NCBI GenBank assembly: GCA_964600955.1
Contig: CAZRLV010000001.1
Span: 2,277 to 44,586 of the forward strand
Reading direction: 5' to 3'
Length of the DNA stretch: 42,310 nt
Source: an uncultured bacterium
Lineage (GTDB): Bacteria > Muiribacteriota > UBA6191
Below are positions 8,254 to 35,130 of the stretch, piece after piece. How positions within the stretch are numbered: position 1 is the first letter of the stretch; each line of letters starts with the position of its first letter. The notes under the pieces were generated by a model. That model searched no databases, was not told where the DNA came from, and saw only the letters and a program-made list of their open reading frames with translations. A program made the position numbers and the translations under genes.

Positions 8254-9204
8254 TTATGGCTTGTTAACCTTCGCGTTTGCATGGCAGTACAAGGGAGTGA
8301 ATACATTTGTGGAATCGGATAAGGAGGACATTTTTGATAGGATTGGGGCGAAGAAATGTTCGTCTAAACGCCAAACCTCTGTCTGGAGCGTGGCTTGCAG
8401 GAAGAATTCAATATTTCTAAAGGCTAGTCCTCCCCCTGAGAGAAAGATTTGCTTTTCTTGCGTAGGTTCGCCTTGATTTGCCATAGCTTTAGACATCTCG
8501 GCAATCCAGGACGCCAGAGCCGTAAAATAATCCTGGAGCTTGAGAAAACCAGGCACTTGAAATTGCTGGGTACGAAAAACGGGAAGAAAAATAATCTCAG
8601 AGCGTTTGATTTGCACGATTTCCGGCTCAGCGCAGTCCCAGAGGCTTTGAATGCGCTGATCAACTTCGATGGATGCGAGTCCCGGCTCCTCTTCAAAAAG
8701 CAAAATACGTCCATTACGAACTCCAACTGCATAAAGATTGGAGTAGGATCCGTGAATCAAGACCATGTTTTTACCCAGAAACTTGGGGGTTTTACTCTGA
8801 TTCAACACCAGTTCAATTACAGCGCTCAGGCTGGAGCCAAGAAATGAAGCCTCTAGTCCTTGCCTTTCTAAAAGTTGATTAATCAGATCCTGAAGGCTGG
8901 TATCGAGGTCTACTTCCAGGCTTTCCTCTCTTTCTAGGCCCGGATCTTTGGACTGCAAGGAATATTCAAAAAAAGCGGGAGGAAGCAGACAATCAAGAAT
9001 TGAACTTCCAAGGTTCCAGGACTTGCGCACCTGACCAAGCCCTGCTTCAAGTACATCAAAATAATGCTCTAGATGCCCCGTGCGATGGACTTTTAGAAGG
9101 GGTAGGCTTTCCTGGCGTTTGAATTCCAGCGGGTTTGAACTCCCGGAATTGACTTCTAGGTGCTTGAGGTTGAAACTTCCCAGACCAAGAATATTTTTAG
9201 ACAT
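8254..9204 (-). CDS. Actin-like ATPase-fold protein, remote PilM-like (316 aa)
   Basis: Track ORF 8254..9279. I prefer the internal ATG at 9204 (MSKNILGLGSFNLKHLEV...), which overlaps the ROK stop by 8 nt rather than 83 nt. The N-terminal ILGLG..LK..EV pattern and the C-terminal IFLSGGGLAFRNIEFFL resemble the phosphate-1 and LSGGG motifs of PilM/FtsA-type proteins. The functional call comes from pattern memory only. Confidence 0.5.
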   Translation of the reverse strand: MSKNILGLGSFNLKHLEVNSGSSNPLEFKRQESLPLLKVHRTGHLEHYFDVLEAGLGQVRKSWNLGSSILDCLLPPAFFEYSLQSKDPGLEREESLEVDLDTSLQDLINQLLERQGLEASFLGSSLSAVIELVLNQSKTPKFLGKNMVLIHGSYSNLYAVGVRNGRILLFEEEPGLASIEVDQRIQSLWDCAEPEIVQIKRSEIIFLPVFRTQQFQVPGFLKLQDYFTALASWIAEMSKAMANQGEPTQEKQIFLSGGGLAFRNIEFFLQATLQTEVWRLDEHFFAPILSKMSSLSDSTNVFTPLYCHANAKVNKP

Positions 9205-10195
9205 GCAGTTCCCCAATTTTCCCCTGAGAGTCCACGCGAAAAAGACAGGTAGCGCCAATGATCCCAGCTTCAGATCCAAGCTTTACAGGCAGGATTTTAA
9301 CAGCGTCAAGTGCGCAGGGGATGGCCCGGTTCTCAATGGTTTTTAGCATGATCTCCAAAAAGGGTTTTCCCAGGTTGGCCACGCCTCCGCCGAAAGTAAT
9401 GATTTCTGGATTGAGAAGATTGATCAAGTTCACAAGCCCTACGCCCGCGAAATAACCTAGCTTTCTAACCAGAGACAGTGCCTCTGTTTGCCCCTGGCTG
9501 GCTAAATCTCCAATGCTTTCACCAGAGATGCTTGTCTCATCAAGCAGGTCGCAGAGACGATTGCCTTGAGCTTCTTTAGGTTTTTCGCGCAACTGTGTCT
9601 GGATCAATTCTCTGGCATAATGGGTCAAAGCCGTGCCGCTGGCGTAAGATTCAAAAACTCCCAGATTCCCAGATTCACTGCGAGGCCCATCATGGCAGAT
9701 GCTGGTTAGACCGACCTCACCGGCGCAGTTGCTGGCACCCCTGAGAATCTGATCATGGATGACGATTCCAGAACCGATCCCCGTGCCCAGAAAAATATTG
9801 ATATAGATGGAGGGACGCTGATCAAGCCCAAAGAGGTATTCCCCCAGGGTAGCGGCTCGCACATCATTATCAATAGCAATTTTCAGTTGCGAAAAATCAG
9901 ATCGCAGTTTGTCCCCAAGCGGGGCGTTTCTCCAGCCCAGATTGGGAGAATGGTGAATCAGGCCAGATTCTGGATGAATTTGTCCGGCACAGCCAACTCC
10001 AAGACCAGACACCGAGCCCTGAGTATTTGGATAGTCGTCTAAAAGTTTCTGAATATTTGAACGAAGCTTTAGGTAATAAGCCTCAAAAGTGGGTGACTTG
10101 GATGAAAAACTGAGCCGCTTTGAAATTTCTCCGTGAGCGTTAACAATTCCCAGAGCGGTTTTAGTGCCTCCAAGATCAATCCCCAGTGAAACCAT
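9197..10195 (-). CDS. ROK-family sugar kinase (glucokinase-like)
   Basis: N-terminal LGIDLGGTKTALGIV ATP-binding motif, IDNDVRAATLGE, and the ROK signature region GTGIGSGIV...GASNCAGEVG. The ATG shares one base with the pheS TGA (TGATG). Confidence 0.85.
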   Translation of the reverse strand: MVSLGIDLGGTKTALGIVNAHGEISKRLSFSSKSPTFEAYYLKLRSNIQKLLDDYPNTQGSVSGLGVGCAGQIHPESGLIHHSPNLGWRNAPLGDKLRSDFSQLKIAIDNDVRAATLGEYLFGLDQRPSIYINIFLGTGIGSGIVIHDQILRGASNCAGEVGLTSICHDGPRSESGNLGVFESYASGTALTHYARELIQTQLREKPKEAQGNRLCDLLDETSISGESIGDLASQGQTEALSLVRKLGYFAGVGLVNLINLLNPEIITFGGGVANLGKPFLEIMLKTIENRAIPCALDAVKILPVKLGSEAGIIGATCLFRVDSQGKIGELHV

Positions 10196-13331: not shown

Positions 13332-13808
13332 CTAGGGAAAGCCGATCTGACGGTAGGCTTCATAGACGAGAGTTGTGCAGGCATTGGCGAGATTTAGACT
13401 GCGTGTTTGACCCCACATGGGCAGAGTTACCAGGGGGTGCTCTTCTTTCAAGAGCAGTTCCCGTGATAATCCCTGGGTCTCTTTGCCAAAGACAAGAATA
13501 TCTCTGGGGGAAAAATCAAACTCATGATAGGGGACTCCGTCGCGGGCACTTGTGAGAACCAGTCTTTTATCCCCATATTCACTCATAAAGGCAGTAAAGT
13601 TCTTGAGAAAACTAAAATTCAAATGGGGCCAATAATCGAGACCGGCCCGTCGTGCACGTGCATCGGTAATCTCGAAGGGAGTAGGTCCCACGACTACGAG
13701 AGGGGTGTTGGTAGCCACACAGGTTCGAGCGATAGAGCCGGTATTGCCAGGAATCTCCGGTTCAACTAGAGCCACCGTTATACCACTATAATTCTCAGAA
13801 TCCATCAA
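13332..13808 (-). CDS. trmL: SpoU/TrmL-type tRNA (cytidine/uridine-2'-O)-methyltransferase
   Basis: 158 aa. Has EPEIPGNTGSIARTC near the N-terminus and the C-terminal knot region LVFGKETQGLS...SLNLANA typical of SPOUT TrmL enzymes. Confidence 0.85.
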   Translation of the reverse strand: MMDSENYSGITVALVEPEIPGNTGSIARTCVATNTPLVVVGPTPFEITDARARRAGLDYWPHLNFSFLKNFTAFMSEYGDKRLVLTSARDGVPYHEFDFSPRDILVFGKETQGLSRELLLKEEHPLVTLPMWGQTRSLNLANACTTLVYEAYRQIGFP

Positions 13809-14064
13809 TATCTCCTTATCGCATGCAATTCTACTTGAATTCGTTCACTATTTGTTCTATGATACACATGCCAGCCTAAGAAAAAGCTTGCTGATAGGAA
13901 TCAATTCGGTGTAGCATAATCGAAGCTGGAATAACAACAACTGAAGCGAGCCATCAACGGTGGTCAGGAAACGAGGAAACTGATACTGGAGGTGGCTTTT
14001 TTCTTTCCCCAAAACTTTTACGATTCGGGTCTGTTCCGTTCACAGCTGATGCCTGGAGGTTCCC

Positions 14065-15153
14065 TTGATCAAACCAATTTTTCATTGCCTTTTAATGGGT
14101 CTGTTCATTTCCGCTTCATCTGCCAACGGGTTTCGCGTTGGCCTGGTGAACATCTATTTTTTCGCTGCGCTTTTTGAAGATAATTTGAAAAATCCCCTTT
14201 TCAAGCCGTTAAAAAAGCCGCCATCCACGACGGAGGAAAAAGAGACGGATCGTCTCAGTCTTGAGTATCTGGCGCGTTATGTTCGATATTTGGACGCCGA
14301 TGTTTTGGGAATTTGTGAGGCCCCGTCGCGGGTAGAAGATCTTGAAGCCTTTGTGAAACAGTATTTAAAGGATCAGTACAGGGTGGTTCATAATTCGCCG
14401 GTCATTAAAAACAGAAAATTTTATTTCAACCAGCAGGTGGCCTTTCTTGTACGCCGTGATCGATTTCATCTGCGACGATATGAAGCTTTGCCAGGCGAGA
14501 GGATCCGCCAGCTTAGGCAAAAATATCCATACCCTGAAAAAGAGGTCTACACATTGGATGGAAAAAACCTGGATGTCTGGTGGAGCCGTTTCCCTATTGA
14601 GATGGATTTAGCCCTAAAAGACGACCCAGGTCACTGGTATAAGTTTATCTTAACCTACCCCAAATCAAAATTTGCACGGGGTAAGCAGGCCAAGCGCGAG
14701 GCCCGCATCAAGAACTATGTTCAGCAGCGCATCGTTCGACGTAGACTCGAAGAAATATCCTCTGACTTTGAAGATGTTTTTATCATGGGGGATATGAACG
14801 ATGATTTAGGGATGGGACCTGTAGAGAAAACCCTGGGAATTGATTCCATTCAAGGACTCTATTACGGAGATAAAGATCCCTTGCTTTGGAACCCTTTAAG
14901 CTTTGCAGAGGGTGAAGGCACTTATATTTATAAAGGACATCCAGAGATTATTGATTATATTTTTCTTAGTCATGGGCTGCAAAAAGGGAAGGGAAGGGTA
15001 AGACCCACGGACTATCAGCATTTTCATTTTTATAAGACGATGGTGCGTCAAACCCGCTCGTCAAGACCTGATAGGCTTAGAAATCGAGAGCTTTTTCTTT
15101 CGGATCATGCGCCTCTTACCCTCGATGTGATTCACAAATTTTTCCAAGAGTAA
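14065..15153 (+). CDS. Secreted endonuclease/exonuclease/phosphatase (EEP) family protein
   Basis: TTG start 5 nt after GGAGG (14055..14059). Signal peptide MIKPIFHCLLMGLFISASSANG. EEP motifs are present (DVLGICEA, FIMGDMNDD, IDYIFLS, LSDHAPLTLDV). Confidence 0.8.
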   Translation: MIKPIFHCLLMGLFISASSANGFRVGLVNIYFFAALFEDNLKNPLFKPLKKPPSTTEEKETDRLSLEYLARYVRYLDADVLGICEAPSRVEDLEAFVKQYLKDQYRVVHNSPVIKNRKFYFNQQVAFLVRRDRFHLRRYEALPGERIRQLRQKYPYPEKEVYTLDGKNLDVWWSRFPIEMDLALKDDPGHWYKFILTYPKSKFARGKQAKREARIKNYVQQRIVRRRLEEISSDFEDVFIMGDMNDDLGMGPVEKTLGIDSIQGLYYGDKDPLLWNPLSFAEGEGTYIYKGHPEIIDYIFLSHGLQKGKGRVRPTDYQHFHFYKTMVRQTRSSRPDRLRNRELFLSDHAPLTLDVIHKFFQE

Positions 15154-15347
15154 AAAAGGGTGGATTGGGGTCGAAATAGGGCCTATTTGACCGAATTTGT
15201 ACGTTAATGTCCGTATATTATTAATAATCTCCTCGGATTAGGCTCAAGTCCTCATGGCTTTGATCCGAAAACTATAGTGATTCTCTTATAGGTTTCCTAG
15301 TTTTTTAACTGTGGACCGGTTGAAAACCCAGGATCTTCAAAGAAAAG

Positions 15348-15379
15348 CCTTCAAATTCTGCCCGAATCTGAAGGTTTTT
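15348..15379 (+). terminator. Candidate intrinsic terminator downstream of the EEP gene
   Basis: Stem ccttcaaattc (15348..15358) pairs with gaatctgaagg (15364..15374), 10 of 11 pairs. 5-nt loop, followed by TTTTT (15375..15379). Confidence 0.45.
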
Positions 15380-15461
15380 CTCCTTTACCGAAACCCCATA
15401 ACGAGAATAAAATCATCAGGAGCTTGATCGCTTGATAAATTCCTTTCATACCCCATTAGAT

Positions 15462-15489
15462 TAAAGGTTACGGCTAAATATGCCGATAA
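15462..15489 (+). promoter_or_regulatory. Sigma-28 (FliA) promoter, distal promoter of flagellin paralog 1
   Basis: TAAAGGTT (15462..15469), 12 nt, then GCCGATAA (15482..15489). The enterobacterial consensus is TAAAGTTT-N11-GCCGATAA. The spacing matches the promoter of paralog 2. It lies about 630 nt upstream of the ATG at 16122. Confidence 0.7.
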
Positions 15490-15700
15490 CCAAGAAGAGG
15501 ACCCAAAGTCCAACCAAAAAAATAATCTAACTTAGGTTGCTTTGGGCTGAATCGAGTGGATTATTCAAGATAATCCGATCTAATCGCACCTAACCCACCG
15601 CAAACAGCTTCATGTCTTTGCCGATCTTGGTCGATACTGATGGAGACATCGTAAAAGGATTCGGAAGTTTCTACTTCCGGAGCCCAGGTGACACTGCAAT

Positions 15701-15712
15701 TGGCCCACAGTC
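15701..15712 (-). repeat. Copy 1 of the flagellin-spacer motif (core GACTGTGGGCCA read on the minus strand)
   Basis: Exact 12-mer tggcccacagtc on the plus strand. It is shared with 16027..16038 and 38075..38086, and as the reverse complement with 19001..19012. Confidence 0.8.
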
Positions 15713-15740
15713 GCAGGTTTAATACCTGAGTTTAGCCCAT

Positions 15741-15780
15741 CAAGGATGATAGGGCAGGAAGCATCAAGGAGGATGATATG
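15741..15780 (+). promoter_or_regulatory. Duplicated flagellin-leader module (two GGA sites, SD and ATG) heading only a 53-codon ORF
   Basis: caaggatgatagggcaggaagcatcaaggaggatgatATG aligns by eye with the genuine leader caaggatggcaggcaaaaatccatcaaggaggatttaaaaATG at 16082..16124. Confidence 0.45.
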
Positions 15781-16025
15781 ATTTTTTTCACAGCGGGATT
15801 TTCACCGCATTTTAACGCTTCACCCCCCTCAAATAGCCTAGTTGGCTATTGCTGGGATGCTCCAGCCCGTCTTGGGTTTTGGGGATCTATCAGAGAACTG
15901 ATTATCCTAGCATTTCCGTCTCGTCACGCACCCGAATAAAGGCTGTCGGTGACGGGGCGGAGGTGCCCCCAAGGTAGATCGTTTTTGAGGTCTAGTCCTT
16001 AAATCGAATCCGGCGTTTTGTAAAT

Positions 16026-16040
16026 CTGGCCCACAGTCAA
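16026..16040 (-). repeat. Copy 2 of the flagellin-spacer motif (TTGACTGTGGGCCAG on the minus strand)
   Basis: ctggcccacagtcaa on the plus strand. This 15-mer is identical, in reverse complement, to the cores of the 18973..19035 and 38055..38113 elements. Confidence 0.8.
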
Positions 16041-16080
16041 CCTCACGCCGGGGAAAATAACTTGGAATAAACGAATGCCG

Positions 16081-16121
16081 CCAAGGATGGCAGGCAAAAA
16101 TCCATCAAGGAGGATTTAAAA
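16081..16121 (+). promoter_or_regulatory. Flagellin 1 leader: two GGA motifs, SD inside a hairpin (CsrA-type translational operator candidate)
   Basis: AAGGATGG at 16083..16090. Hairpin AAATCC (16098..16103) / GGATTT (16112..16117) with loop ATCAAGGA. The SD AAGGAGGA (16107..16114) sits 7 nt before the ATG. Confidence 0.5.
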
Positions 16122-18800
16122 ATGGAAGGTTTTAGAATAAATAGTAATATTGCGGCCCTGAGTACTAACTCACATCTGAGAAAAGCTCAGGGTGGATTAG
16201 GGCAGTCGATCGAGAGACTCTCCTCGGGACTTAAGATCAATAGGGCTGCTGATGACGCAGCAGGACTCACAGTTTCAGAGAAATTGCGAGGACAGATTAT
16301 TGGTTTAAACCGTGGGATTCAAAATGCCCAGGACGGAATTTCCCTGATTCAGACGGCAGAAGGTGCCCTCAATGAGGATCACGCCGTGTTGAACCGCATG
16401 AGAGAACTCTCAGTTCAGGCTCAGTCTGATGCTTTGACTTCAGGCGATCGTCTGGAGTTGCAAAAAGAAGTCGATCAAATGGTCGGCGAGATTGATCGCA
16501 TCTCTGACACCACTGAATTTAACACCAAGAAAATGCTAGACGGGAGTATGTCCGGTCTGGTGAGTACAGATCATAATGACCTCACTGCCTATCAGAACGG
16601 TGGTGCTGTGGCGGAAGGCGATTTTACGGTCGCGATTTCAAAAACGGCAAGTGGTACAAGGCAGGTTCAAAATTCTGCAATCCAAAGAGATGCAAATAGC
16701 GGGAATGTAGCGGGCCTTTCCACTACGCTCAGAGATCTTGAGAGCATGACTGATAGTGATGGAAACGGGAGTCTTGCTAGCGCACAGACTCTGACCTTAA
16801 GAGCTAACGGTTTTACGGCTGAAGTCACCATGACTTCCGATCAAACTCTCCAGGAGTTTACCTCCAAGGTTGAGACTGCTATTACCAAAACTGAGGATGA
16901 TGGGGGTCTGGGTCTTGAAGGTTCAACTTTTGCTTTTAATGCGAGCTCTGGACAGTTCATCTACGAGGCTGGAAAAGATGGCAGTCGGGGGGATCTTTCT
17001 TTTGGAGGAGATGAAGATATCCTACAGGCGATAGGTATGCAGGTTACGGTAGAGTCAGAAGATTCTGCGTTTAGTGTGACCTCCACGCAGGTGGGTGTAG
17101 CCTCTCCCCAGACGGTTACTGAAACGACGAGCAGTGGTCGTGCTTCAGGTGTCATTGGTGGCTTGGATCTTGAGTTTGAACTGGCCTCCGAGGCTCGCCA
17201 TGATGGAAGTGTTGCGGCCACGGACTCCATTACCATCGCTGCTACTGATGTAGTGTTTACTTTTCATGATACGAATGGTGCTGACATTGGGCAGACGGAT
17301 GGAAACATCAGTGCCGGGGTGACGATTACTCTGACACAGAGCCGCACCTATACCACAGCATCAATTTCTACCATGATTAACAACGCGGTAGCAGCATCGA
17401 ATGATCCTACCAGCGCACTGACACCAACAAGTGCCTCCACAACATCCTTTAAAGATCCAGGTATTACCGCCAGTTTCGATGGCTATAACCTCAAACTGAC
17501 CTCCTCTGACACCGGAACGTCGGCAGAGATTTCCATCGCTGGGAATCAGGCGGCGCAAGATATCATGGGAATTGTGGATGGAAAGACGACAGGTAGCGCG
17601 GGAGTTACCGCCGCTCTGGTCGGTTCAGTGGATATCTCTGGTGGGGTCACGATCAACGGAACCGGAACCTTGCGGTTGCGAGTCGGTGACGGGGATTTCA
17701 ATACCAACACGGGTAATACGGCAGGATCTCGTTCTCTCGGGGTTGCAGCTGGAGGAGACATTTCCTTTAACCGAGGAGTGGCTATTTCTTCAACTTCTGT
17801 TGTAGATACCTTCAACTCCTATTTCACGACCAACAACATGGATGCAGTAGCCAGCATGGCTGCCGATGGAAAACTGGAGATCCGCTCCATCGAGACAGGT
17901 ACTGATGCCAAGCTTTCTATCACTGGAAATGCTCCAGCCACGGATTCCATGGCTAATCTCGGATTTACTTCGGGTCAGACCGACCTTGGAGAAGATGGAA
18001 ATGCTGCGGTATTTACTTGAAATACTGCTGACTCGCAAGAGACCCAGGGTTTTACTCTGTCGGGACATTTGGATTTCAATGTCACCGATAGAAACGGTGC
18101 CACGACTACGACGATTTCCTTTGACGCATCCGGTGTCAGTACGAACGAGTCGTTTACCATTTCAAAAGAGACAGTGACCTCGGTCATTAACTCGAGTAAC
18201 CTGAGCACTACCGATGTTGAATTTAGTATCGATGCCGGTAATCGACTAGACTTCTCTTCGAAGTCTGCCGGTGAAGGTTCCAGGGTTGTGCTTTCTACCA
18301 ATAACAATGGTACGATGCAAACCCGTGCCAGCACCAGTTTTGGTCTGGATATGGAAAGCTCGGCACAGGGTGCCGGCAAGACTGATTTCAACGTCCATGT
18401 TACTGACAAGACATTGAATTTTGAGGTAGGCGCGAACCAGAAGCAATTCCAGAGCTTTCAGGTTCGAAATGCCAGTGCAGACTCTCTGGGTCTGCGAGGC
18501 GTTGATGTCACTAATATCTCGGCTGCCACTAAGGCTCTTGGAAAAATCGATGACGCTATTCAGGCGGTATCGAGCGAGAGAGCCAAACTGGGAGCCATGC
18601 AGAACCGCTTGAATTCAACAGTGAATAGCACCACTGTAACCCATACAAATGCCTCGGCTTTTGAATCGTCCATTCGAGACGTGGATCTTGCCAAGGAAAC
18701 GGTGGAATTCACTCGAAATCAGATCCTGACACAGGCAGGTACGGCTCAGTTATCCCAGACCAAGGCCCTAAATCAAGGAGGTCTACAACTCTTAGGATAG
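16122..18800 (+). pseudogene. fliC: Giant flagellin paralog 1: one 893-codon frame interrupted by a single in-frame TGA (18018..18020)
   Basis: Track ORFs 16122..18020 and 18069..18800 are in the same frame. 18021..18068 has no further stop. The N-terminal D0/D1 region (MEGFRINSNIAALS...LSSGLKINRAADDAAGL...ISLIQTAEGAL) is in the first ORF. The C-terminal D1/D0 region (KLGAMQNRLNSTV...IRDVDLAKETVEFTRNQILTQAGTAQLSQ) is in the second. It is collinear with the intact 879-aa paralog. Confidence 0.85.
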
Positions 18801-18838
18801 GCGAAATCCCAACCTTAATTTACCAATAATCTAATTCA

Positions 18839-18862
18839 GGCCCCTTCGGGGGCCTTTTTTTT
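18839..18862 (+). terminator. Intrinsic terminator of flagellin paralog 1
   Basis: GGCCCC (18839..18844), TTCG loop, GGGGCC (18849..18854), followed by T8 (18855..18862). It lies 39 nt after the TAG. Confidence 0.85.
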
Positions 18863-18972
18863 AGGTAGATAAAGCCGTAAATGGAAGGTAATCAAAAATA
18901 ATTCAAGTTAAACAAAGATAAACAAGGGGGATCAAGCTGGATGAGATCTGGAATTATTCCGAAGTATAGATA

Positions 18973-19035
18973 GAATTCTCCTGAAGGTTTCCAAGTTTTT
19001 GACTGTGGGCCAGTTTTAGACCGAAGAATCTTCCA
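18973..19035 (+). repeat. 63-bp element (left inverted repeat) containing motif copy 3
   Basis: gaattctcctgaaggtttccaagtttttgactgtgggccagttttagaccgaagaatcttcca. By hand alignment about 55 of 63 positions are identical to the reverse complement of 38055..38113. Confidence 0.8.
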
Positions 19036-19046
19036 AATTCACAAAA

Positions 19047-19080
19047 GACCTCTAAATTTCTCAAATTTAGGGGTCTTTTT
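19047..19080. terminator. Bidirectional hairpin terminator at the 3' end of the GT-B gene
   Basis: gacctctaaattt (19047..19059) pairs with aaatttaggggtc (19063..19075), one G-U pair and a 3-nt loop. TTTTT follows on the plus strand and TTTTGTGAATTT on the minus strand. Confidence 0.6.
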
Positions 19081-19089
19081 ATTTCTTCC

Positions 19090-20238
19090 TCAGGTGGCTT
19101 CCTGGAAAATCTTTTTTTCAAATCTGCGCGCAACGGCAGGATATGACATAAGGTCTTGAAAAAAACCATGGGACTCAAGGGCTAAATCGAGTCTTTTCTC
19201 TTTGGATGCGAGCAATAGATTTTCGAGAGCCTGGGAAAGAACAGAAGGGATTGCTTGGGTATTAATAATTGGGAAACGCGCCTTCAGCTCGGTACTGCCG
19301 CATTGCAGTTCCAAATCTCTCTCACTGATATTTTGAATCGAACTCAAGACTATGTTACCGAGAGATAATGCCTCGACGGAGCTAATTCCATATCCACCCA
19401 CTTCGGAGCTAAATTGGTCAATATGGATATGAGACTTCTTTTTTAGTTCGATTATGCGTGCATTAGGCACCGGAGGATTGACTTCTTCATAGCTCAGCTT
19501 GAGTGAGGTCTTGGGAGTGACTCTTTCAAACACTTCGCGAACCACGTTACGAATGATCTCCGTACCCTTGACTGAGTGAGAGGACGGGGTATGCGAAATT
19601 CGAATTTCATCCAAACTAAATTTTTGGTGAATCGATTCTTCTACCTTATCGGCGCTTAATGGGGCCTGGTAAGCACAGACGGGAACCAGATATTGCGGGG
19701 TGCCGGGGCAGAGGCGATATAGATCGACTCCCATCAAGACTTTGTCAAAATATCGCAGGTCCAGTTGGTCGAACTGGTGGTGAGCCACTCGGTAATCAAT
19801 TCCGCAATGGTGGATATATAGCTTGAGTTTAGGGTTGGCCAGTTTAAGCTCTAGCAAACAGAAGTTTAGAATTTTTCGAAGATATCCCAGGGTTTGGTAT
19901 CGCAATGGTTTTTTTTCCAACTGGATTTCTTCAGCAAGCACGATATGGCTAGAGCCTAAGAGCCATTCAATGGCTTTATCGCGCCCCTCCACATTAATGA
20001 GATACTCGCCTCCCCCCGCCTCTGGGGGAAAGGTTAAGTCAATATCATGGGATAAACCATAGGAAAAATGGTGAGGTCTGATACAGATACTTCGAGATTC
20101 CAGTCCTTCTGAGAACTGATCAATGGCACGGGACCAGTTTGTCATCGAATTCCCATAGTCAGTGAAAGCGATGAAACAGACTTTTTTCTTAGGAAATGTG
20201 GACACTTTGGTCTGCGATGTTTTAGGTTTGATTCCCAC
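19090..20238 (-). CDS. GT-B fold (GT1/GT4-like) glycosyltransferase
   Basis: 382 aa. The C-terminal half carries the pattern of retaining GT-B enzymes (ISHTPSSHSVKGTEII ... HIDQFSSEVGGYGISSVEALSLGNIVLSS). The track start is GTG without an obvious SD, so the start is uncertain. TGA stop. Confidence 0.55.
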   Translation of the reverse strand: MGIKPKTSQTKVSTFPKKKVCFIAFTDYGNSMTNWSRAIDQFSEGLESRSICIRPHHFSYGLSHDIDLTFPPEAGGGEYLINVEGRDKAIEWLLGSSHIVLAEEIQLEKKPLRYQTLGYLRKILNFCLLELKLANPKLKLYIHHCGIDYRVAHHQFDQLDLRYFDKVLMGVDLYRLCPGTPQYLVPVCAYQAPLSADKVEESIHQKFSLDEIRISHTPSSHSVKGTEIIRNVVREVFERVTPKTSLKLSYEEVNPPVPNARIIELKKKSHIHIDQFSSEVGGYGISSVEALSLGNIVLSSIQNISERDLELQCGSTELKARFPIINTQAIPSVLSQALENLLLASKEKRLDLALESHGFFQDLMSYPAVARRFEKKIFQEAT

Positions 20239-20312
20239 TGGAACCAGCTATTTTTTAGAGTTTTAAAGGTATGCTATCTTAGGCGGGAAGCGAAGTCAAA
20301 CCGGATTAGTTG

Positions 20313-20999
20313 ATGATGAAGCCAGCCATTAAGAAAACCGTCAAACGTGTATCCGAACTTTACGACGAGAATACCAAGACTCATGGGGTGGGTGCTCGCA
20401 GTGTGGGTTGGCATTCACAAAAAGATCATGCTCTAAGGTTTGAGAAACTCTGTGAAGTCATCAAATTTAACGAGGGTGGAACCATCACCGTTAATGATCT
20501 GGGCTGTGGCTATGGAGCCCTATGCACCTATCTTATGGACCAGACTGAGGTCAAGATTGAGAAATATTCAGGCTACGATGTTTCTAAAGCTATGCTGCAA
20601 CTTGCCAGAGAGGAATTAGACCTTGGGGTCTGTTCTTTGAATCTAAGTGACAGCATTCTTGAGGAGGCCGATTATTCTTTTGCAAGCGGAACTTTCAATG
20701 TTTGTTTTGATGCGGATCGATCTGCTTGGAGAGCGCATATAGAGGCATCCTTAAGGAATCTACACCATTACTCCAGGAAGGGAATGGCTTTTAATTTACT
20801 GTCCACCTACGTGGATTGGAAAGCCCCCGATCTTTATTATGGGGACCCCCTGTATTTTTTCGATTTTTGTAAGAGGAATTTATCAACTTCGGTGACTCTG
20901 ATTCATGACTATCCCCTGTACGAGTGGACAATATTGGTGGGATCAGCCTCCAATTTGAATGATGGTTCGCATGGGAGTGTAGCGGGAGGTTCGGACTGA
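20313..20999 (+). CDS. Class I SAM-dependent methyltransferase
   Basis: Motif I VNDLGCGYGAL. About 228 aa. The first ATG (20313) is taken rather than the track TTG at 20310. The 3' end overlaps the convergent gene by 57 nt. Confidence 0.7.
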   Translation: MMKPAIKKTVKRVSELYDENTKTHGVGARSVGWHSQKDHALRFEKLCEVIKFNEGGTITVNDLGCGYGALCTYLMDQTEVKIEKYSGYDVSKAMLQLAREELDLGVCSLNLSDSILEEADYSFASGTFNVCFDADRSAWRAHIEASLRNLHHYSRKGMAFNLLSTYVDWKAPDLYYGDPLYFFDFCKRNLSTSVTLIHDYPLYEWTILVGSASNLNDGSHGSVAGGSD

Positions 21000-21716
21000 G
21001 AAATTTTGTTCTCGGAAAACCTCTTTGAAAGCCAGCGCTTCTCCCGGAGATTCTGACCAGGTAAATTCGTCTAGCAGCAGCACACTTCCAGGAAGTAAAT
21101 GAGGCTTTATGGCTTCAAGGGCAGCTTTGGTGGGCTCATAGAGTCCCAGGTCAAAATATGCCAGTGCCACAACGGTTTCCGGGTGCGAACGGAAAAACTC
21201 GGGAACCGTGGATCGTACGTCACCCTGAATTAGCTCATGGTTCCCCTTCATATGTCCTAAAACATTACATTCTTCATGAACCTCAAGAAGTTTTTCGAGA
21301 GTTTTGAGGTAGCTCTCAGGTGTTAGATAATCGTTCTCAGTTAGAAAGCCATTTTGCTTGTCTTTTCCTGAAAAGCCTTTATATCCGTCAAATGAGTCAA
21401 AGCCAATGATTTTACGAGTTTTGTTAAATGGCTCATAAATGGCTCGAAGATTTTCAAAAAGAACCATGTTTTGGCCGTACCAGACCCCAAATTCCAAAAT
21501 GGCTCCCGGCTGATTTTTGATCAGTTCATAAAGTTCATTCAGAACCAAAATCTTAACTAACGCTGAACCCCGTGTAAACAAACCAAGGTTACAAAGTAAG
21601 TCGTCCGTGGGGATATTGTTATCTTTATATAATTTTTTGAGTTGTTCCCTGGCTTCTAATTGACCCTTACTTGAGTTGGACTCAAGTAAGTTGGATGGGT
21701 TGTCTTTTTGATGCAT
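20943..21716 (-). CDS. TylF/MycF-like (macrocin-type) O-methyltransferase
   Basis: Track ORF 20943..21818. I prefer the ATG at 21716 (MHQKDN...), preceded by GGGGAG at about 5 nt, giving 257 aa. Family pattern: ILEFGVWYGQNM, IIGFDSFDGY, ALAYFDLGLYEPT. Confidence 0.65.
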   Translation of the reverse strand: MHQKDNPSNLLESNSSKGQLEAREQLKKLYKDNNIPTDDLLCNLGLFTRGSALVKILVLNELYELIKNQPGAILEFGVWYGQNMVLFENLRAIYEPFNKTRKIIGFDSFDGYKGFSGKDKQNGFLTENDYLTPESYLKTLEKLLEVHEECNVLGHMKGNHELIQGDVRSTVPEFFRSHPETVVALAYFDLGLYEPTKAALEAIKPHLLPGSVLLLDEFTWSESPGEALAFKEVFREQNFSVRTSRYTPMRTIIQIGG

Positions 21717-22659
21717 ATGTCTCCCCGGGAGCGCGAGAGGCTTCAGATGAAACTGCCAATCCAAAGCCATATTTTCCGTGTTCGTTACCATTGTAGAATA
21801 AATACTGCGAGCCTTCATAGCGAATCACATGTGGATAACAACTCATTTTGCTGTCTGAACCATCTGGGGCCGGAGGTAACCCGAGTTTTTCATTTTGACG
21901 TTTAAAGACCAGCCCATCGTTTGACTCTGCATATCCAATACGATAGCCCTTACCCAGGGCGGGGGTTGCAAAGCAATACCACATTTGGAAAAAATCTTCT
22001 TCATTTAATACCGTGGGTTTCCCAAGGTTCGACTCTGTGGAGTCCTTGAAATCAAGAATGACCCTTCCCTCGCGTTGCCAGTGGATTCCATCCTTGGATA
22101 GAGCTAGCTTAATATTATAGCGGGAGTAGTAACATCCGTCGATGAGTTGCCAGGAAACCCCCGATACGTAATACATTCTAAACCCATCCCCATGGCGAAT
22201 TACGTGCGGAGCCGTTACCAGGCACGGGTCGAATGGGCTTCGTTCCAGGATTGGGCAATCATGCATACGCTGGAAGCTCATTCCACCATCTTGACTTAAA
22301 GCCAGTCCGATGGAGGCATAAAACAGGTGGGGGCTTTGGCCGCGTGTATATCCGATGTAATAAAGGTAGAGCTTATCATTCACCTCCAGGACGCAGGATG
22401 GATAAACCCCATGTTGGTCAAAATGTCCGGGTTTACCTGGAGTTAGAACGGGCTTGGAATCTACTTCCAGCACCCGCAAGGACTTTAAATCAAAATCCAG
22501 GCAGCCAACGCTGGCGACCTTGTTTTTGTCCCGAGTCGAAAAGAGAACTCTGGGGTGGGATTCACCTCCAGGAATTACCACAGGTGATTGGGCATGGGTC
22601 TGCATCCAGGAGTTCTGGCCTTGCACTGCAAAGACAAGTCCCAAATTTTTCCATTCCAT
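21682..22659 (-). CDS. Beta-propeller protein of the GH32/43/130-like superfamily (function unknown)
   Basis: 325 aa. Repeated blade-like strands with aromatic/Gly patterns (LYLYYIGY, FRMYYVSG, FQMWYCF, YLFYNGN). No signal peptide. The family assignment is from pattern memory and needs profile search. Confidence 0.45.
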   Translation of the reverse strand: MEWKNLGLVFAVQGQNSWMQTHAQSPVVIPGGESHPRVLFSTRDKNKVASVGCLDFDLKSLRVLEVDSKPVLTPGKPGHFDQHGVYPSCVLEVNDKLYLYYIGYTRGQSPHLFYASIGLALSQDGGMSFQRMHDCPILERSPFDPCLVTAPHVIRHGDGFRMYYVSGVSWQLIDGCYYSRYNIKLALSKDGIHWQREGRVILDFKDSTESNLGKPTVLNEEDFFQMWYCFATPALGKGYRIGYAESNDGLVFKRQNEKLGLPPAPDGSDSKMSCYPHVIRYEGSQYLFYNGNEHGKYGFGLAVSSEASRAPGETYASKRQPIQLT

Positions 22660-22673
22660 GATAGATGATTCGT

Positions 22674-23345
22674 TTACTCGAAATATTTAGCTGTTGTTTC
22701 TTTTCGTGGACAGGTTCTTTCGGAAATAAAGAGTTCTCTGGGACCTGCCGATTTCATGATTAATGAACCGGCCCCAATTAGGCATTCATCACCAATTTCA
22801 ATACTATCTCTCAAGGTCGCGTTGACTCCAATCATACATTTTTCACCGACCGTGCAATTTCCGGATATCACCACATGCGAAGTGATAAATGTATGATCTC
22901 CAATCTTGGAATGATGGCCGATGTGGTTACCGCTCCAGAGGACCACATTATTCCCGATTTGGGCGAAAGGTTGCAGGGTGTTGTTCTCAAAAATGAAGGT
23001 ATTATCTCCGATTTTGTTCGTAGACCACAGCCGTACCCCAGGGTAGATATAGGATACGAGTTCATAACCTTTGCTTTTGGCTTCTTCGTAAAACTTGGCT
23101 CGGACATGATTTAGACGTGCATAGCCGATGGCTACAAACATTTTCGTTGCGTGTGGCGGAAATCTGGATTCTACATTTTCAAAGGATACGACCTCAAGTC
23201 CTAGAAACTCGCGAGAATCCCTTTGTTCCAAATAGGCCTTGGATTCACAAAATCCAACGACTTCAAAATCACTGGCTTCGCTAAAATAAGCATATACAAC
23301 CTCGGCAAAGAGATTGGTGCCGACAAGAACAATTTTTTCAGTCAT
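22674..23345 (-). CDS. NeuD/PglD-family sugar N/O-acyltransferase (hexapeptide repeat)
   Basis: N-terminal Rossmann-like KIVLVGTNLFAEVVYAYF, followed by a left-handed beta-helix with hexapeptide repeats (IGNNVVLWSGNHIGHHSKIGDHTFITSHVVISGNCTVGEKCMIGVNATL). Confidence 0.75.
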   Translation of the reverse strand: MTEKIVLVGTNLFAEVVYAYFSEASDFEVVGFCESKAYLEQRDSREFLGLEVVSFENVESRFPPHATKMFVAIGYARLNHVRAKFYEEAKSKGYELVSYIYPGVRLWSTNKIGDNTFIFENNTLQPFAQIGNNVVLWSGNHIGHHSKIGDHTFITSHVVISGNCTVGEKCMIGVNATLRDSIEIGDECLIGAGSLIMKSAGPRELFISERTCPRKETTAKYFE

Positions 23346-23348
23346 GAT

Positions 23349-24404
23349 TTATCTCCCTGGCAACAAGCGATCAAACGGAACAGCAAAGAAGTTGGGGAAC
23401 TCTTGAAGGATTTCTGAGCGAGTGAACTCCAGGATTGAAGTCTCAAGGACTTGAGTGTAATAGATGTAGGGGTGATCCTGTGCTCCCCATCGCTTTTTAA
23501 AATCATAGACTCCGGTCTGGTCATCCCAGGTTCCACCCCAGTTCCAATATTTGAATCCTTTTGATATGGCATTCTTCATCGCTTCAATCAAAGCCAAACT
23601 TAAGGGTTGGCAATTTCGAAACTCGGGGTCCAGTGCGGGGGTAAAATATTCGACAGTCTGATTGAAATAAAAAAGCAGAACAGCGGCTACCATACGATTA
23701 TCGATCTCAGCCAGATAAAGAACATAGTCATCTTTGGCGTAGATTTCAGGGATGGTTCTAAAAAACTCCCAGGACTTTGGAATTCCTCCCAGGTCATTTA
23801 GATTGGCCCTATGCAATAGATAAAGTTTACGCAGGTCCTCAAGACTCTGAGATTTTCGGATGGTGACACCGCTCTTTTTTGCCTTGCGAATATTTCTGGA
23901 GCGGCATTTGCTAAAAGATGCGATCAATAGGCTGAGAGCTTCATCCGATGACTGGGGGAGGGGGGTAATCTGGCCTGTGCGGGCTGTTTGGAAGGTAATA
24001 GGGGTAAAGTCACCATAGTTTATGTTCATGGCACTAAATGGAGAGGAAACAAGGGTAGCGCTCAGGCATTTCTTTTCTCTGGCAAATGAAAAGAACCCGG
24101 CAATGAGTTTCTCACGTATTTCGGGGCTTCCATGGTGTTCGATACAGCCTCCGTGACTCCCGTAAAACGGGAGGGAATTCAGGACATTGCCATAGCGAGT
24201 ATTTTGTTTGAGAAATGTAGGCAGGACTCCCATGATTTTTTTATCTACGTAAACGCATAGGTAGTGGTCGGTTGCCTTGAGTACGCGCTTTAGATGCAGT
24301 CGATAAACATTGGAGGCATAAAGTTGGGTCCATGGAGAGCGCAGAAGGAAGTCGTTGTATTGGTCGAGGTCCTCCGGTTCCAGTTTTTTCAGTTCAAGAG
24401 TCAT
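23349..24404 (-). CDS. FemAB / Acetyltransf_6 (GNAT-fold) family protein
   Basis: Track ORF 23349..24539. The internal ATG at 24404 (MTLELKKLEPEDL...) limits the overlap with the upstream gene to 11 nt. Family-like region: YVLYLAEIDNRMVAAVLLFYFNQTVEYFTPALDPEFRNCQPLSLALIEAMKNAISKGFKYWNWGGT...YDFKKRWGA. Confidence 0.6.
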   Translation of the reverse strand: MTLELKKLEPEDLDQYNDFLLRSPWTQLYASNVYRLHLKRVLKATDHYLCVYVDKKIMGVLPTFLKQNTRYGNVLNSLPFYGSHGGCIEHHGSPEIREKLIAGFFSFAREKKCLSATLVSSPFSAMNINYGDFTPITFQTARTGQITPLPQSSDEALSLLIASFSKCRSRNIRKAKKSGVTIRKSQSLEDLRKLYLLHRANLNDLGGIPKSWEFFRTIPEIYAKDDYVLYLAEIDNRMVAAVLLFYFNQTVEYFTPALDPEFRNCQPLSLALIEAMKNAISKGFKYWNWGGTWDDQTGVYDFKKRWGAQDHPYIYYTQVLETSILEFTRSEILQEFPNFFAVPFDRLLPGR

Positions 24405-26418
24405 GTTTAGGTTTAGACATAAAAAAACTATGGTACCACTCCTCAAAGGAAAGCAGTGACCAGATGAGCAGGCGATGATTAATGCCTTGCGAGTGCTCTT
24501 TAATGGTTTTTTCGATAAAGTCCTTGTTGAGGAACTCAAGACAGACCGCTGATTTTGCTAATAATCGATCTTTAACGTATTGGAAATTTTCGCCGCGGTA
24601 CCAACTCTCGTCCGGCGCTGAAAACCCTTGTTTACTTCTTCGGGTTATTCTCTCGGGCAATAATCCCTGCATGGCATGCCGTAAAACATTTTTTCCGTCA
24701 TCATGACTTTGGTAATAGGCACTTTGCTTTCTCAAAATATTTTCATCCATGCGGGTTTGCTGTTCCAGGTTTCTTATTTTATGTCGAATAGGAATTTTCA
24801 TGGCAAAGTCCACAAGATCATTATCTAGGAAGGGGAATCTCTCTTCAATCGATGAGGCCATCGAGAGCTTGTCGCCGACTATGAACAGCCCATGTAAAAA
24901 CGTCTTGATTTCAAAATAAAGAGAATTTGCAAGATGATCCTCAGGGGAGTCGTAGTTAAGGTTTTCATTAAAGCGGAAGACTTTTTTAAAGATCTCATAG
25001 GGTCGGTCAATCGAGATATTTTTGAGGGTTTCAGGTTTAAACAGTCTGAGCCTGTCCTGACCTTTCACCAATCTCTGCCAAAACCCATAATAATGTGAAT
25101 AAAACTCTTCGCGGTCAGTGGGATTCAATTCACGGTAATAGCGCCAAGGATAGCCTGCATAGAGTTCATCACCTCCCACACCTGTAAGTACGATCGTTAC
25201 AAATTTAGAAGCCAGTTTGCTGATATAGTAATTTGGATAACTCATGCCTACGCGCAGGTCCTCCATATGCCAGATCACTTTAGGGAGAGCCCATGATATG
25301 TCTCCGGCATTGATAACCTGTTCAAAATGCTGGGTTTTAAATTCATTGGCTACAATCTCGGCTGCGAGTCGTTCATCAAAGCTAGCCTCAACACCCGTTA
25401 CCTGAGACAGCTCAAAACCTGCTGTAAAGGTGCTCATACGCTCTAATTGCTGGCTTGCAACGGCAACAACTGCACCGCTATCGATTCCTCCACTCAAATA
25501 GGAACCGATGGGAACATCGGCCACGCATTGGCGTTTCACTGCCTGATGAAAGAGGCGCAGAGTTTCTTCACTGGCCTCGCTAAAGGAAATATTTTCATCA
25601 CTCTGTGTAAAATCATAATCCCAGAAACAAGTTTTTTGAAACCTGTTCTGGAAGTCAATCTGAGCTATATTGGCAGGAGGTAGGAGAAAAACCCCCTCGA
25701 ACAGAGTCTCGAACTGAAATAGGTTTTGAAACGTGAAATACTCATTCAGGGCTTCATAGTTTAGCTTTCGTGCAAGATCCGGGTAGCATAATAGAGATTT
25801 GATCTCGCTGGCAAAAAGAAACAAGTCTCCGCATTGAGCATAGTACAAAGGTTTGATTCCATATCGATCTCTTGCCAGATACAGGGTTTGTTTGGGACTA
25901 TCGAAAAGGGCAAAGGCAAACATGCCATTGAAACGTTTCACACAGTCTATGCCCCATTCCATATAAGCCAATAAAACCACTTCGGTATCAGAGCGGGATC
26001 TGAATTCATATCCGAAACCTTCAAGCTCCTGTCTTAATTTAATGTGGTTGTAGATTTCTCCGTTGAAAACCAGCCAAAAGTTTCCCGATCGGTCCTGCAT
26101 GGGTTGATGGGCCGCCGCACTGAGATCAAGAATGGATAATCGGCGATGTCCAAGAAATAGATTCCAATGGTCTCCTTGCAGAGCGGTTCGTCCCTCCGGC
26201 GAGTCTATGACAGGAAGTCTGGGTGAAATTGAGGAAAATTCAGAGTCAGTGAATTCCAAATCGTAAGAAGACATTTTACCTGCCAGAGGACCTGTACGAG
26301 CGACTAAATATCCAGCGTCATCTGGGCCTCGATGGGAGATGCTGTCGCACATGGTCTTGAGAAAATTTGACTTCAGGATCTGACCATTGGCGGCCAAAAC
26401 TCCAACTATTCCGCACAC
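24394..26418 (-). CDS. asnB: Asparagine synthase (glutamine-hydrolysing)-like amidotransferase
   Basis: 674 aa. N-terminal nucleophile MCGIVG, Ntn glutaminase domain, then the PP-loop SGGIDS (YLSGGIDSGAVV) of the synthetase domain. Confidence 0.85.
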   Translation of the reverse strand: MCGIVGVLAANGQILKSNFLKTMCDSISHRGPDDAGYLVARTGPLAGKMSSYDLEFTDSEFSSISPRLPVIDSPEGRTALQGDHWNLFLGHRRLSILDLSAAAHQPMQDRSGNFWLVFNGEIYNHIKLRQELEGFGYEFRSRSDTEVVLLAYMEWGIDCVKRFNGMFAFALFDSPKQTLYLARDRYGIKPLYYAQCGDLFLFASEIKSLLCYPDLARKLNYEALNEYFTFQNLFQFETLFEGVFLLPPANIAQIDFQNRFQKTCFWDYDFTQSDENISFSEASEETLRLFHQAVKRQCVADVPIGSYLSGGIDSGAVVAVASQQLERMSTFTAGFELSQVTGVEASFDERLAAEIVANEFKTQHFEQVINAGDISWALPKVIWHMEDLRVGMSYPNYYISKLASKFVTIVLTGVGGDELYAGYPWRYYRELNPTDREEFYSHYYGFWQRLVKGQDRLRLFKPETLKNISIDRPYEIFKKVFRFNENLNYDSPEDHLANSLYFEIKTFLHGLFIVGDKLSMASSIEERFPFLDNDLVDFAMKIPIRHKIRNLEQQTRMDENILRKQSAYYQSHDDGKNVLRHAMQGLLPERITRRSKQGFSAPDESWYRGENFQYVKDRLLAKSAVCLEFLNKDFIEKTIKEHSQGINHRLLIWSLLSFEEWYHSFFMSKPKHDS

Positions 26419-27596
26419 TGGAAGAGTTCCTCCATGACATAATTGAACTCGGAATCCGTCATTTGAGGGTAGACAGGTAGCGCAATGCTAAGTTGGTCGG
26501 CAGCCAAGGACTGAAGATAGTCCTCAGGGTTTATACCATATTTTTGCCGATAGTATTTCAAGGTATGAACCGCATGGGTTCCCTGTCGCGTGGCTATTCC
26601 CTTGTGCGCAAGTCTGAACATGAACTGATTGCGCAGTCGATTCAATTTTTCAATTTTGGACAGATTCAATTCTGCGAAATCTTCACCGCCCGTATAGAGG
26701 CAGACATAAGACTGATAGCTATGTACATATTCCTGTGGAGTGACCGGTGTCTTGAGGTGTGGGTGAGAACCTAAGGCAGCGTCATAGTTTCGGGCAATTT
26801 TGCGGCGTCCGTGAAGTATCTTCTGGGCTTTCTCAAGCTGAGTCACGCCCAGAGATGCCTGGATATCCGTCATGCGGTAATTAAATCCCCGAAGCTCAAA
26901 TTCAGGCAAGAGGCTTCCTTGCCTGGACTGGTGTCGATCCAGGTCTGAGACCGCAGCTCCATGACTTCGCAACTGATTGACCTTCTCAATTAGACTGGAG
27001 TCTTCTGTAATGAGCATTCCCCCTTCACCAGTGGTTATGGCTTTGCGGGGATGAAAAGAAAAGCAGCCAAGATCACCAAAGGTTCCAGAATGTCTGTCTC
27101 CAATCCAGCTGTCAAATCCGCAAGCCGAATCTTCAAGAATTCTGAATTCATATTTTCTACGTAGATCCAGAATCGCCGGAAGGTTGGAGCAAAGACCAAA
27201 AAGGTTGACTGGCATGACGGCCTTGATTCTGTTCTGGGTGTCCTTTTCCAAGATTTCTTCGAGTTTCGTCGTATCCAGGTTGAAATCCTGTAGGCGGATA
27301 TCACAAAAGATGACTTTTGCTCCCGTATACTCAACTGCGTTTTGAGAGGCTACATAGGTGAAGGATGGCACAACCACCTGGTCTCCCTCACCAATCCCCA
27401 GAGCAGTTAAACCCAGGTGAAGGGCGCTGGTACAGCTGGAGCAAGCGCTCGAAAATGAGGCTCCTGTAAATTGGCTAAAACGCGATTCAAACTCTTTGAC
27501 CCAAGGTCCCTGAACCAACCAGCCAGTGTCCAGGGGGCGTAAAACAGCCTCGCGGTCTTTGGAATCAAGAACTGTCTTGGTAATGGGTATCTTCAT
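26406..27596 (-). CDS. DegT/DnrJ/EryC1/StrS-family PLP sugar aminotransferase
   Basis: 396 aa. Has SCTSALHLGL and the PLP-lysine region CFSFHPRKAITTGEGGML. 4-nt overlap with the upstream gene. Confidence 0.85.
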   Translation of the reverse strand: MKIPITKTVLDSKDREAVLRPLDTGWLVQGPWVKEFESRFSQFTGASFSSACSSCTSALHLGLTALGIGEGDQVVVPSFTYVASQNAVEYTGAKVIFCDIRLQDFNLDTTKLEEILEKDTQNRIKAVMPVNLFGLCSNLPAILDLRRKYEFRILEDSACGFDSWIGDRHSGTFGDLGCFSFHPRKAITTGEGGMLITEDSSLIEKVNQLRSHGAAVSDLDRHQSRQGSLLPEFELRGFNYRMTDIQASLGVTQLEKAQKILHGRRKIARNYDAALGSHPHLKTPVTPQEYVHSYQSYVCLYTGGEDFAELNLSKIEKLNRLRNQFMFRLAHKGIATRQGTHAVHTLKYYRQKYGINPEDYLQSLAADQLSIALPVYPQMTDSEFNYVMEELFQCAE

Positions 27597-30278: not shown

Positions 30279-30291
30279 AGTTTGGAATTAC

Positions 30292-31248: not shown

Positions 31249-31265
31249 AGGAGGTCTGTCAGGTC

Positions 31266-32897: not shown

Positions 32898-32909
32898 AAG
32901 AATCTCCTT

Positions 32910-33380
32910 TTAAAGGCTATAGCGTTTTTCAAGGCCCCGAAGAAGCCCCAGGGCTTTTTCCATGATGGAAATATTCTGGTCCATAATTAATTGAATAGCA
33001 GACTTCAAGGTTTTAGGAGAGTCCACCGTGAGAATCATAGCCGTCTTGAACTGGGGATTTTTTAAAGCCATGACCTTGATTCCCAGGGCGCGGACTTCGT
33101 TTGCAAGAGGGGTATCGAAATGATAAGAGACTAAACCCATGGCCTCAGCTTTTTTATAGATCTCACGGTCGCGTGTTTCAAGATTCAATTTGAGATCAAA
33201 CAGAGCTTGCAGATCGAATTCACCCATTTTCCCAGCCGGAATCAGAAACTCGCAAAACCAGTTTCGAAACAGAAAGTATGGACAATGATTTTCACGGCCC
33301 GCGTCCTCACGAACGACCTCTCCCTCGGGGAAAGCCTCCTCAAGTTCGGCTAAAACACTATTGATTTGATCGGGACTCAT
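32910..33380 (-). CDS. Hypothetical protein (156 aa)
   Basis: ATG preceded by GGAGG at 7 nt. No family recognised. It is the first gene of the tightly packed array 33380->20943. Confidence 0.6.
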   Translation of the reverse strand: MSPDQINSVLAELEEAFPEGEVVREDAGRENHCPYFLFRNWFCEFLIPAGKMGEFDLQALFDLKLNLETRDREIYKKAEAMGLVSYHFDTPLANEVRALGIKVMALKNPQFKTAMILTVDSPKTLKSAIQLIMDQNISIMEKALGLLRGLEKRYSL

Positions 33381-35126: not shown

Positions 35127-35130
35127 AAAC

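Follow-up and report, generated by a model that had tools for sequence, protein, structure and literature searches.

The question raised by this locus is why a long flagellin gene, equipped with a full set of expression signals, should be interrupted by a single in-frame TGA at a codon where its homologues encode glycine. The original prediction offered three explanations for this stop: a nonsense mutation of very recent date, an artefact of the strain or of sequencing, or low-level UGA read-through that doses the product of this paralog. The first two options are upheld by the presence of GGA at the same codon elsewhere, while the proposal of read-through dosing is not sustained. The stop is private to one rough draft assembly. 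It probably reflects an error of sequencing, or at the very most a mutation of very recent origin, rather than a regulatory device.

The window analysed here is a stretch of 42,310 nucleotides located on scaffold C1 of this draft, which comprises 606 scaffolds (3.9 Mb, 47% G+C, N50 of 8.7 kb) and is approximately 88% complete. The nearest named relatives of the source organism are uncultured MAGs labelled 'Candidatus Cloacimonadota bacterium'. The features of the window that bear on the question are the following:

15462..15489, plus strand: sigma-28 (FliA)-type promoter motif, TAAAGGTT-N11-GCCGATAA, approximately 630 nt upstream of the start of flagellin 1.
16107..16113, plus strand: Shine-Dalgarno sequence AAGGAGG, 8 nt before the ATG, read directly from the sequence.
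16122..18800, plus strand: flagellin paralog 1, from ATG-16122 to TAG-18800, 892 codons, with beta-rich outer domains between Flagellin_N and Flagellin_C.
18018..18020, plus strand: in-frame TGA at codon 633; two other assemblies from this population have GGA (Gly) here, the alleles differing only by G/T at 18018.
18838..18865, plus strand: intrinsic terminator, a GC-rich hairpin (AGGCCCC-TTCG-GGGGCCT, 18838..18855) followed by T8.
35131..37770, minus strand: flagellin paralog 2, intact (879 aa); the aligned codon is GGC (Gly), and three other assemblies have an identical copy.
39625..42225, minus strand: flagellin paralog 3, a pseudogene with two frameshifting deletions, read in three frames.

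Translation of the 892 codons confirmed that 16122..18800 forms one frame in which the TGA at 18018..18020 is the sole internal stop, and that the segment immediately following it (18021..18068) is open, as had been claimed, and reads NTADSQETQGFTLSGH. When the open reading frames are listed under translation table 11, the gene is split into 16122..18020 (632 aa) and a TTG-started frame at 18069..18800 (243 aa). The Pfam profile Flagellin_N (PF00669) matches residues 6-142 of the joined frame with 132 bits, against a cut-off of 26.6, and Flagellin_C (PF00700) matches residues 806-891 of the intact allele with 76 bits. In the draft as written, the Flagellin_C region lies 3' of the TGA, and is joined to the N-terminus only with a G at 18018.

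The AlphaFold2 model of the joined frame, which was built from an input of 47 homologues and has a mean pLDDT of 78, places residue 633 directly after a strand (627-632) in the beta-rich outer domains, with a long C-terminal helix (799-881) well 3' of the stop. The C-terminal helix of flagellin is required for the binding of FliS and for packing into the core of the filament. The consequence originally proposed for a terminal stop is correct in outline, given that a 632-aa product retains Flagellin_N (6-142) and is without both Flagellin_C (806-891) and the modelled helix (799-881). If the stop is real, this product would keep the N-terminal helices and would lose the last outer-domain units (640-778) together with the C-terminal helix.

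The sigma-28 promoter, Shine-Dalgarno sequence, and terminator that had been assigned to flagellin 1 are all present where they were proposed. The sigma-28-type motif has two matches in the window, compared with 0.02 expected by chance, and the second match (37940..37966, minus strand) is upstream of paralog 2. The broader claim that everything else about the gene looks alive holds for these signals and for the lack of a second stop in paralog 1, but has to be amended by two more differences private to the draft, both synonymous, at positions 17675 and 18029. In the same window, paralog 3 is broken by two frameshifts.

The residue replaced by the stop is a conserved glycine, as originally noted. 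At the aligned position, paralog 2 has GGC and paralog 3 has GGA (40392..40394), in agreement with the earlier reading, and all six of the other long flagellin genes (scaffolds C67, C16, and C22) have GGA. Glycine occupies this position in 113 of the 117 full-length database homologues, and cysteine in none, while the glycine column is invariant in the 47-sequence alignment. The genome contains approximately ten long flagellin paralogs, and many long copies are found in each of the nine genomes sampled from the same family. Flagellin 1 aside, no internal stop was found among the approximately 60 full-length flagellin copies of this family in the nine related genomes.

The most direct evidence on the stop is provided by the same locus in other assemblies. 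A homology search recovered a 892-aa protein with Gly633 from a JGI metagenome assembly, which is 100% identical. Its cluster at 90% identity has four members: this protein, a 892-aa protein from an ENA assembly with one difference (V117L), and the two pieces (632 aa and 243 aa) into which the gene is divided in the NCBI record of the source scaffold. At the nucleotide level, the JGI contig Ga0115649_1008928 (sample 3300009008) differs from positions 13481..23800 of the window by three mismatches in 10,320 bases, and the ENA scaffold_20487 (SAMN10231914) differs from positions 13504..23800 by five. Both metagenome assemblies are thus 99.95-99.97% identical to the window over 10.3 kb, both have GGA, and in both the gene is called as a 892-aa protein; they are independent and were produced by different pipelines, and may come from one physical sample. 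The TGA allele is recorded once among approximately 15 billion proteins, and the GGA allele in two other assemblies. In this 10.3-kb stretch, three differences are private to the draft, all of them G/T transversions, and all inside flagellin 1, within a span of 355 bp:

17675, plus strand: G (CGG) in the draft, T (CGT) in JGI and ENA; Arg518, synonymous, a T>G change in a GTT context.
18018, plus strand: T (TGA) in the draft, G (GGA) in JGI and ENA; stop instead of Gly633.
18029, plus strand: T (GCT) in the draft, G (GCG) in JGI and ENA; Ala636, synonymous, 11 nt after 18018.

Gene conversion from a paralog was considered as a source of these three clustered differences and rejected, given that every paralog has glycine at codon 633 and that the paralogs are at most 68% identical, so that a conversion tract would bring dozens of changes.

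In the next closest proteins, this position is spanned by FTGITADSQ (84% identity) and FTGNTADSQ (81% identity). The gene encoding the former, in a sister species, follows pheS, prs, and an exo/endo-phosphatase gene, and this neighbourhood, which matches that of flagellin 1, identifies it as the positional orthologue. The comparison of orthologues recommended in the original prediction therefore returns GGA in both of the other assemblies from this population, and glycine in the syntenic gene of the sister species. Against this orthologue, dN/dS is 0.047 before the stop and 0.065 after it, on a MAFFT-guided codon alignment in which dS is near saturation, which makes these values rough. As dN/dS is equally low on both sides, any inactivation of flagellin 1 would have to be recent. 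The search of paralog 1 for signs of decay found no further lesion, a protein after the stop identical to that of the intact allele, and a low dN/dS on both sides. Taken together, the other assemblies, the sister orthologue, and the dN/dS values indicate that the stop is conserved at no level of relatedness, and that there is no decay downstream of it.

The genetic code of this genome is the normal one. Its long frames end most often in TGA, which closes 692 of the 1690, and the open stretch that follows it has a median of 13 codons, which is no longer than that found after TAA or TAG. The prfB gene (RF2) is present (495 bits, against a cut-off of 370), while the best match to the SelB profile in a search of the genome scored 187 bits, below its cut-off of 242. 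Neither tRNA-Sec nor a tRNA with a UCA anticodon was found by ARAGORN among the 36 tRNAs of the 88% complete genome, in which tRNA-Trp was not assembled. Rfam gave no match near the stop, and the local fold 3' of it is weak and unremarkable (z = -2.16); a covariation test would be meaningless at this site, as the relatives lack the stop. Within the reach of these tools, the usage of TGA, the presence of prfB, and the results for SelB and the tRNAs exclude both selenocysteine and an alternative code.

A recoded UGA, whether as glycine (NCBI table 25), tryptophan (table 4), or selenocysteine, has in its favour that the stop falls exactly on a conserved glycine, as table 25 predicts. This explanation is nevertheless extremely improbable, not only because of the role of TGA as a terminator, the prfB and SelB scores, and the tRNA complement, but also because the homologues have glycine, and not cysteine, at codon 633, and the same gene has GGA in other assemblies. 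Programmed or selected read-through, in which the stop would be retained to lower the dose of paralog 1 and a share of the ribosomes would insert an amino acid and complete the full-length flagellin, is itself very unlikely. The fully intact frame after the stop counts in its favour, as do the promoter, the Shine-Dalgarno sequence, and the terminator. Of the three stops, UGA leaks most in reporters tested in E. coli (PMC11126739), and bacterial genes with conserved in-frame stops that are subject to purifying selection have been described (PMC7918605). The case fails on the conservation of the stop, given the glycine found in two assemblies of the same population and in the syntenic sister orthologue, and the lack of any internal stop in the approximately 60 copies of the family. 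It is also countered by the lack of an Rfam match, by a local fold after the stop that is only weak (z = -2.2), and by the tRNA search, whose 36 hits include no suppressor. A near-cognate tRNA that reads UGA would not insert glycine, which means that the invariant residue would not be restored. In E. coli reporters under normal growth, basal misreading of UGA ranges from undetectable to a few percent (PMC11126739). Neither recoding nor conserved read-through is thus supported at a TGA that is an ordinary stop in a genome with RF2, in which no tRNA-Sec, SelB, or UCA-anticodon tRNA was found, and the dosing proposal of the original prediction falls with them, as the stop is not conserved within the population, no recoding machinery was found, and no notable element was found in the downstream RNA.

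The remaining possibilities are best judged from the quality of the draft and from its private differences elsewhere. Positions 25150..42300 of the window, when compared with JGI and ENA contigs, contain three such differences:

26842: private to the draft, Thr instead of the Ser found in JGI and ENA.
28662: private to the draft, Tyr instead of the Asn found in JGI and ENA.
33546 (approximately), minus strand: 19-bp deletion private to the draft, which frameshifts the C-terminus of the glycosyltransferase/TPR gene at 33512..34699.

The glycosyltransferase/TPR protein has 395 aa in the draft, whereas JGI and ENA have a longer C-terminus in common. On scaffold C4, 21.4 kb were compared with a 69-kb JGI contig, and four SNPs were found, three of them transversions; on scaffold C7 (19.8 kb compared with JGI), there is one transition. 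The C/T difference at C7:13483, which is a transition, is the sole polymorphism common to several assemblies. Overall, the draft differs from JGI by ten SNPs over approximately 69 kb on three scaffolds, of which eight are transversions, two are synonymous, seven non-synonymous, and one nonsense, counts that come from only ten SNPs in approximately seven clusters. This mix of synonymous, non-synonymous, and nonsense changes is as expected of unselected random changes. Some of the SNPs are clustered only 4-11 nt apart (18018/18029 and C4:9337/9341), and those at C4:3683 and C4:3789 flank a junk insert. This insert (C4:3688..3760) consists of degenerate poly-G, to position 3750, which runs into a gap of 10 N, at a point where the JGI contig is continuous. 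The draft contains 71 N gaps, several with poly-G or poly-C flanks, and 14 of the 22 G/C runs of at least 10 nt are within 100 nt of a gap or a scaffold end. One of the N gaps is on scaffold C1, approximately 250 nt before the start of the window. In the three-way comparisons, no private difference falls to the JGI assembly, whose contigs are the longest.

The population carries GGA (Gly633) and an intact 892-aa gene, and on balance the TGA appears to be a consensus error in the draft, an account held with modest confidence. The error would have arisen where a scaffolded short-read assembly of low quality had thin coverage and was built from error-bearing and poorly trimmed reads, which would leave three G/T miscalls in 355 bp, two of them at a distance of 11 nt. 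The real gene would then be an ordinary sigma-28-driven flagellin, one of approximately ten long paralogs, with nothing special at work. The privacy of the stop, the intact gene elsewhere, the normal genetic code, and the junk sequence were observed directly; a miscall at 18018, as against a rare real allele, is inferred.

In two-colour sequencing chemistry, any transversion requires an error in one channel only, and any transition errors in both, so that an error spectrum made up of transversions alone would be explained. The known artefacts of two-colour Illumina sequencing include poly-G tails and an excess of T>G calls at NT[TG] (PMC13218037). The draft resembles such two-colour or low-coverage consensus miscalls in that the changes are private to one assembly, transversion-biased, unselected, and clustered, with poly-G junk beside gaps, and in that one of the three flagellin differences (17675) is a T>G change in a GTT context. 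Unlike the published artefacts (PMC13218037), the change that creates the stop is G>T, and not T>G. For this draft, the use of two-colour chemistry is itself inferred from the poly-G junk.

The alternative is a real and very young nonsense allele, in which the sampled strain acquired GGA -> TGA and translation ends at codon 632. This is a serious possibility, although one that falls short of being probable. The truncated product, which would retain its N-terminal export and D0/D1 segment, would be secreted or degraded, unable to polymerise or to bind FliS. The loss would be nearly neutral, because at least eight intact paralogs would keep the cell motile, and basal misreading of UGA would yield no more than traces of the full-length protein. 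A distinct genotype would fit the observation that the TGA is accompanied by two linked private synonymous differences in flagellin 1 and by the private 19-bp deletion in a glycosyltransferase of the flagellin island, and C7:13483 shows that real polymorphism exists in the population. Redundancy is high, with approximately ten long paralogs, flagellin 1 has no second lesion, and flagellin copies do die in this lineage, as the lesions of paralog 3 are common to an independent assembly. The ratio of eight transversions to two transitions among the private differences of the draft, with no trace of purifying selection, speaks against a real allele, as do the clustering of these differences, the junk sequence, and the single record of TGA against GGA in two other assemblies. 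Even if the allele is real, it would at best be segregating, rather than fixed as a loss, since the other assemblies of the same population do not have it.

An elaborated form of the same idea, in which a real TGA would mark a distinct strain with several flagellar-surface genes changed together, is unlikely. The changes would include the nonsense mutation of flagellin 1, the 19-bp frameshift in the glycosyltransferase, and two amino-acid changes in sugar aminotransferases of the island, and would have been selected, for example, by flagellum-binding phages or grazers. Selection would act here to alter or drop one component of the filament, while motility would be buffered by the many paralogs.

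Two further observations run counter to a consensus error. The private 19-bp deletion is atypical of short-read miscalls, and hints that the draft may represent a distinct genotype. Real strain SNVs are also common in metagenomes, and the lineage does pseudogenise flagellins, as seen in paralog 3.

The first frameshift of paralog 3 has its junction at approximately 40856..40867, at a C5 run, and the second is located at approximately 39795..39813, where some 7 nt are gone within the conserved QNRL motif. The ENA scaffold_10101 has zero differences from positions 38324..42300 of the window, and its gene calls are likewise split; the lesions are real, given that they are base-for-base identical in that assembly. 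Paralog 3 is thus a true pseudogene, in contrast to paralog 1, with its private stop.

Spare flagellins inactivated by nonsense mutations in multi-flagellin bacteria provide one point of reference. As in those cases, flagellin 1 has a premature stop in one redundant copy, with the frame and the signals otherwise intact, but other assemblies from its population lack the stop, which makes paralog 3 the better example. A second reference is the class described by Belinky et al. in 2021, which is defined by a stop conserved across species and a low dN/dS (PMC7918605). Flagellin 1 shares with this class the single in-frame stop, the well-conserved gene, and the purifying selection downstream, but its stop is unconserved even within the population, and its low dN/dS reflects the history before the change.

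The case is chiefly a caution. It is tempting to read recoding or read-through into an in-frame TGA that replaces an invariant glycine, and one look-up in other assemblies is enough to show that this one is private. The finding is an ordinary one, and its main value is in flagging the split annotation of an otherwise intact flagellin gene. The public annotation of the source genome splits this gene into 632 aa and 243 aa, where the real gene of the population is the intact flagellin of 892 aa. If the allele is real, a highly redundant flagellin family would have undergone one more loss that is nearly neutral, an event of a kind already known.

The length of flagellin 1 also calls to mind the 'giant' flagellins of the marine gamma-proteobacteria, for which the threshold is >1000 aa (Thomson et al. 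2018, PMC6248924). Like these proteins, flagellin 1 is long, has large beta-rich outer domains between the canonical N- and C-terminal helices, comes from a marine uncultured source, and is present in many copies per genome. It differs from them in its 892 aa, which is under the threshold of >1000 aa, and in its lineage, the nearest named relatives being the 'Candidatus Cloacimonadota bacterium' MAGs.

The genome carries about ten flagellin genes of ~880-910 aa, which are distributed over scaffolds C67, C16, C22, and C1 of this draft (GCA_964600955.1), and C67 holds a tandem array of at least four, one of which is cut by the scaffold end. Many long flagellin copies are found in all nine of the genomes sampled from the same family. 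In the window, flagellin paralog 3 (39625..42225, minus strand) is a real pseudogene, and an assembly comparison found that an independent ENA assembly (contig L024) has both of its frameshifting deletions with exactly the same bases.

Frameshifting deletions in flagellin paralog 3 (gene on the minus strand)
~40856..40867, deletion 1, same bases in L024
~39795..39813, deletion 2, same bases in L024

Other differences are private to this draft. In the flagellin sugar island, the C-terminus of a glycosyltransferase/TPR gene (33512..34699, minus strand) is frameshifted by a private 19-bp deletion at window position ~33546, flanked by CAG microhomology, whereas the JGI and ENA assemblies have a longer C-terminus in common. 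This deletion may either truly distinguish the strain or have arisen as an artefact of scaffolding. Two further private differences, both non-synonymous transversions, are found in the DegT-type aminotransferase genes of the island, one in each gene.

Private differences in the DegT-type aminotransferase genes
Window 26842, Thr252 in this draft, Ser in the other assemblies
Window 28662, Tyr346 in this draft, Asn in the other assemblies

On a larger scale, the gene table of a 61,867-bp contig (JGI 3300072015) provides the gene order of a sister species, in which very little separates the flagellin 1 orthologue from the genes downstream of it, which are those for the aldehyde dehydrogenase, the 156-aa protein, the glycosyltransferase, and RidA, with flagellin 2 coming next. 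The ~12-kb block of sugar genes at window ~19090..31341 is absent from this locus in the gene table, and therefore looks like an insertion in the lineage of this draft.

The draft contains 71 N gaps, some of which are adjoined by junk sequence made up of degenerate poly-G or poly-C, which indicates that low-quality read tails entered its assembly untrimmed. At the C4 site, where checking was possible, the JGI contig is clean and continuous.

Poly-G or poly-C junk beside N gaps
C4:3688..3760
C1:2023..2032 and 2248..2276, directly before the window
C15:13192
C33:12584

Three clustered complement-type differences from ENA sample SAMN10231913, at window positions 8193 (C/G), 8202 (C/G), and 8218 (T/A), fall within the spacer that separates genes 7041..8120 and 8254..9279, and cannot be polarised, given that there is only one comparator. 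Contigs L022, L023, L027, and L028, all four of them from other assemblies, stop within ~50 nt of one another at window ~13450..13500, while this draft continues through the site, which is likely to be either a repeat or a junction that is polymorphic.
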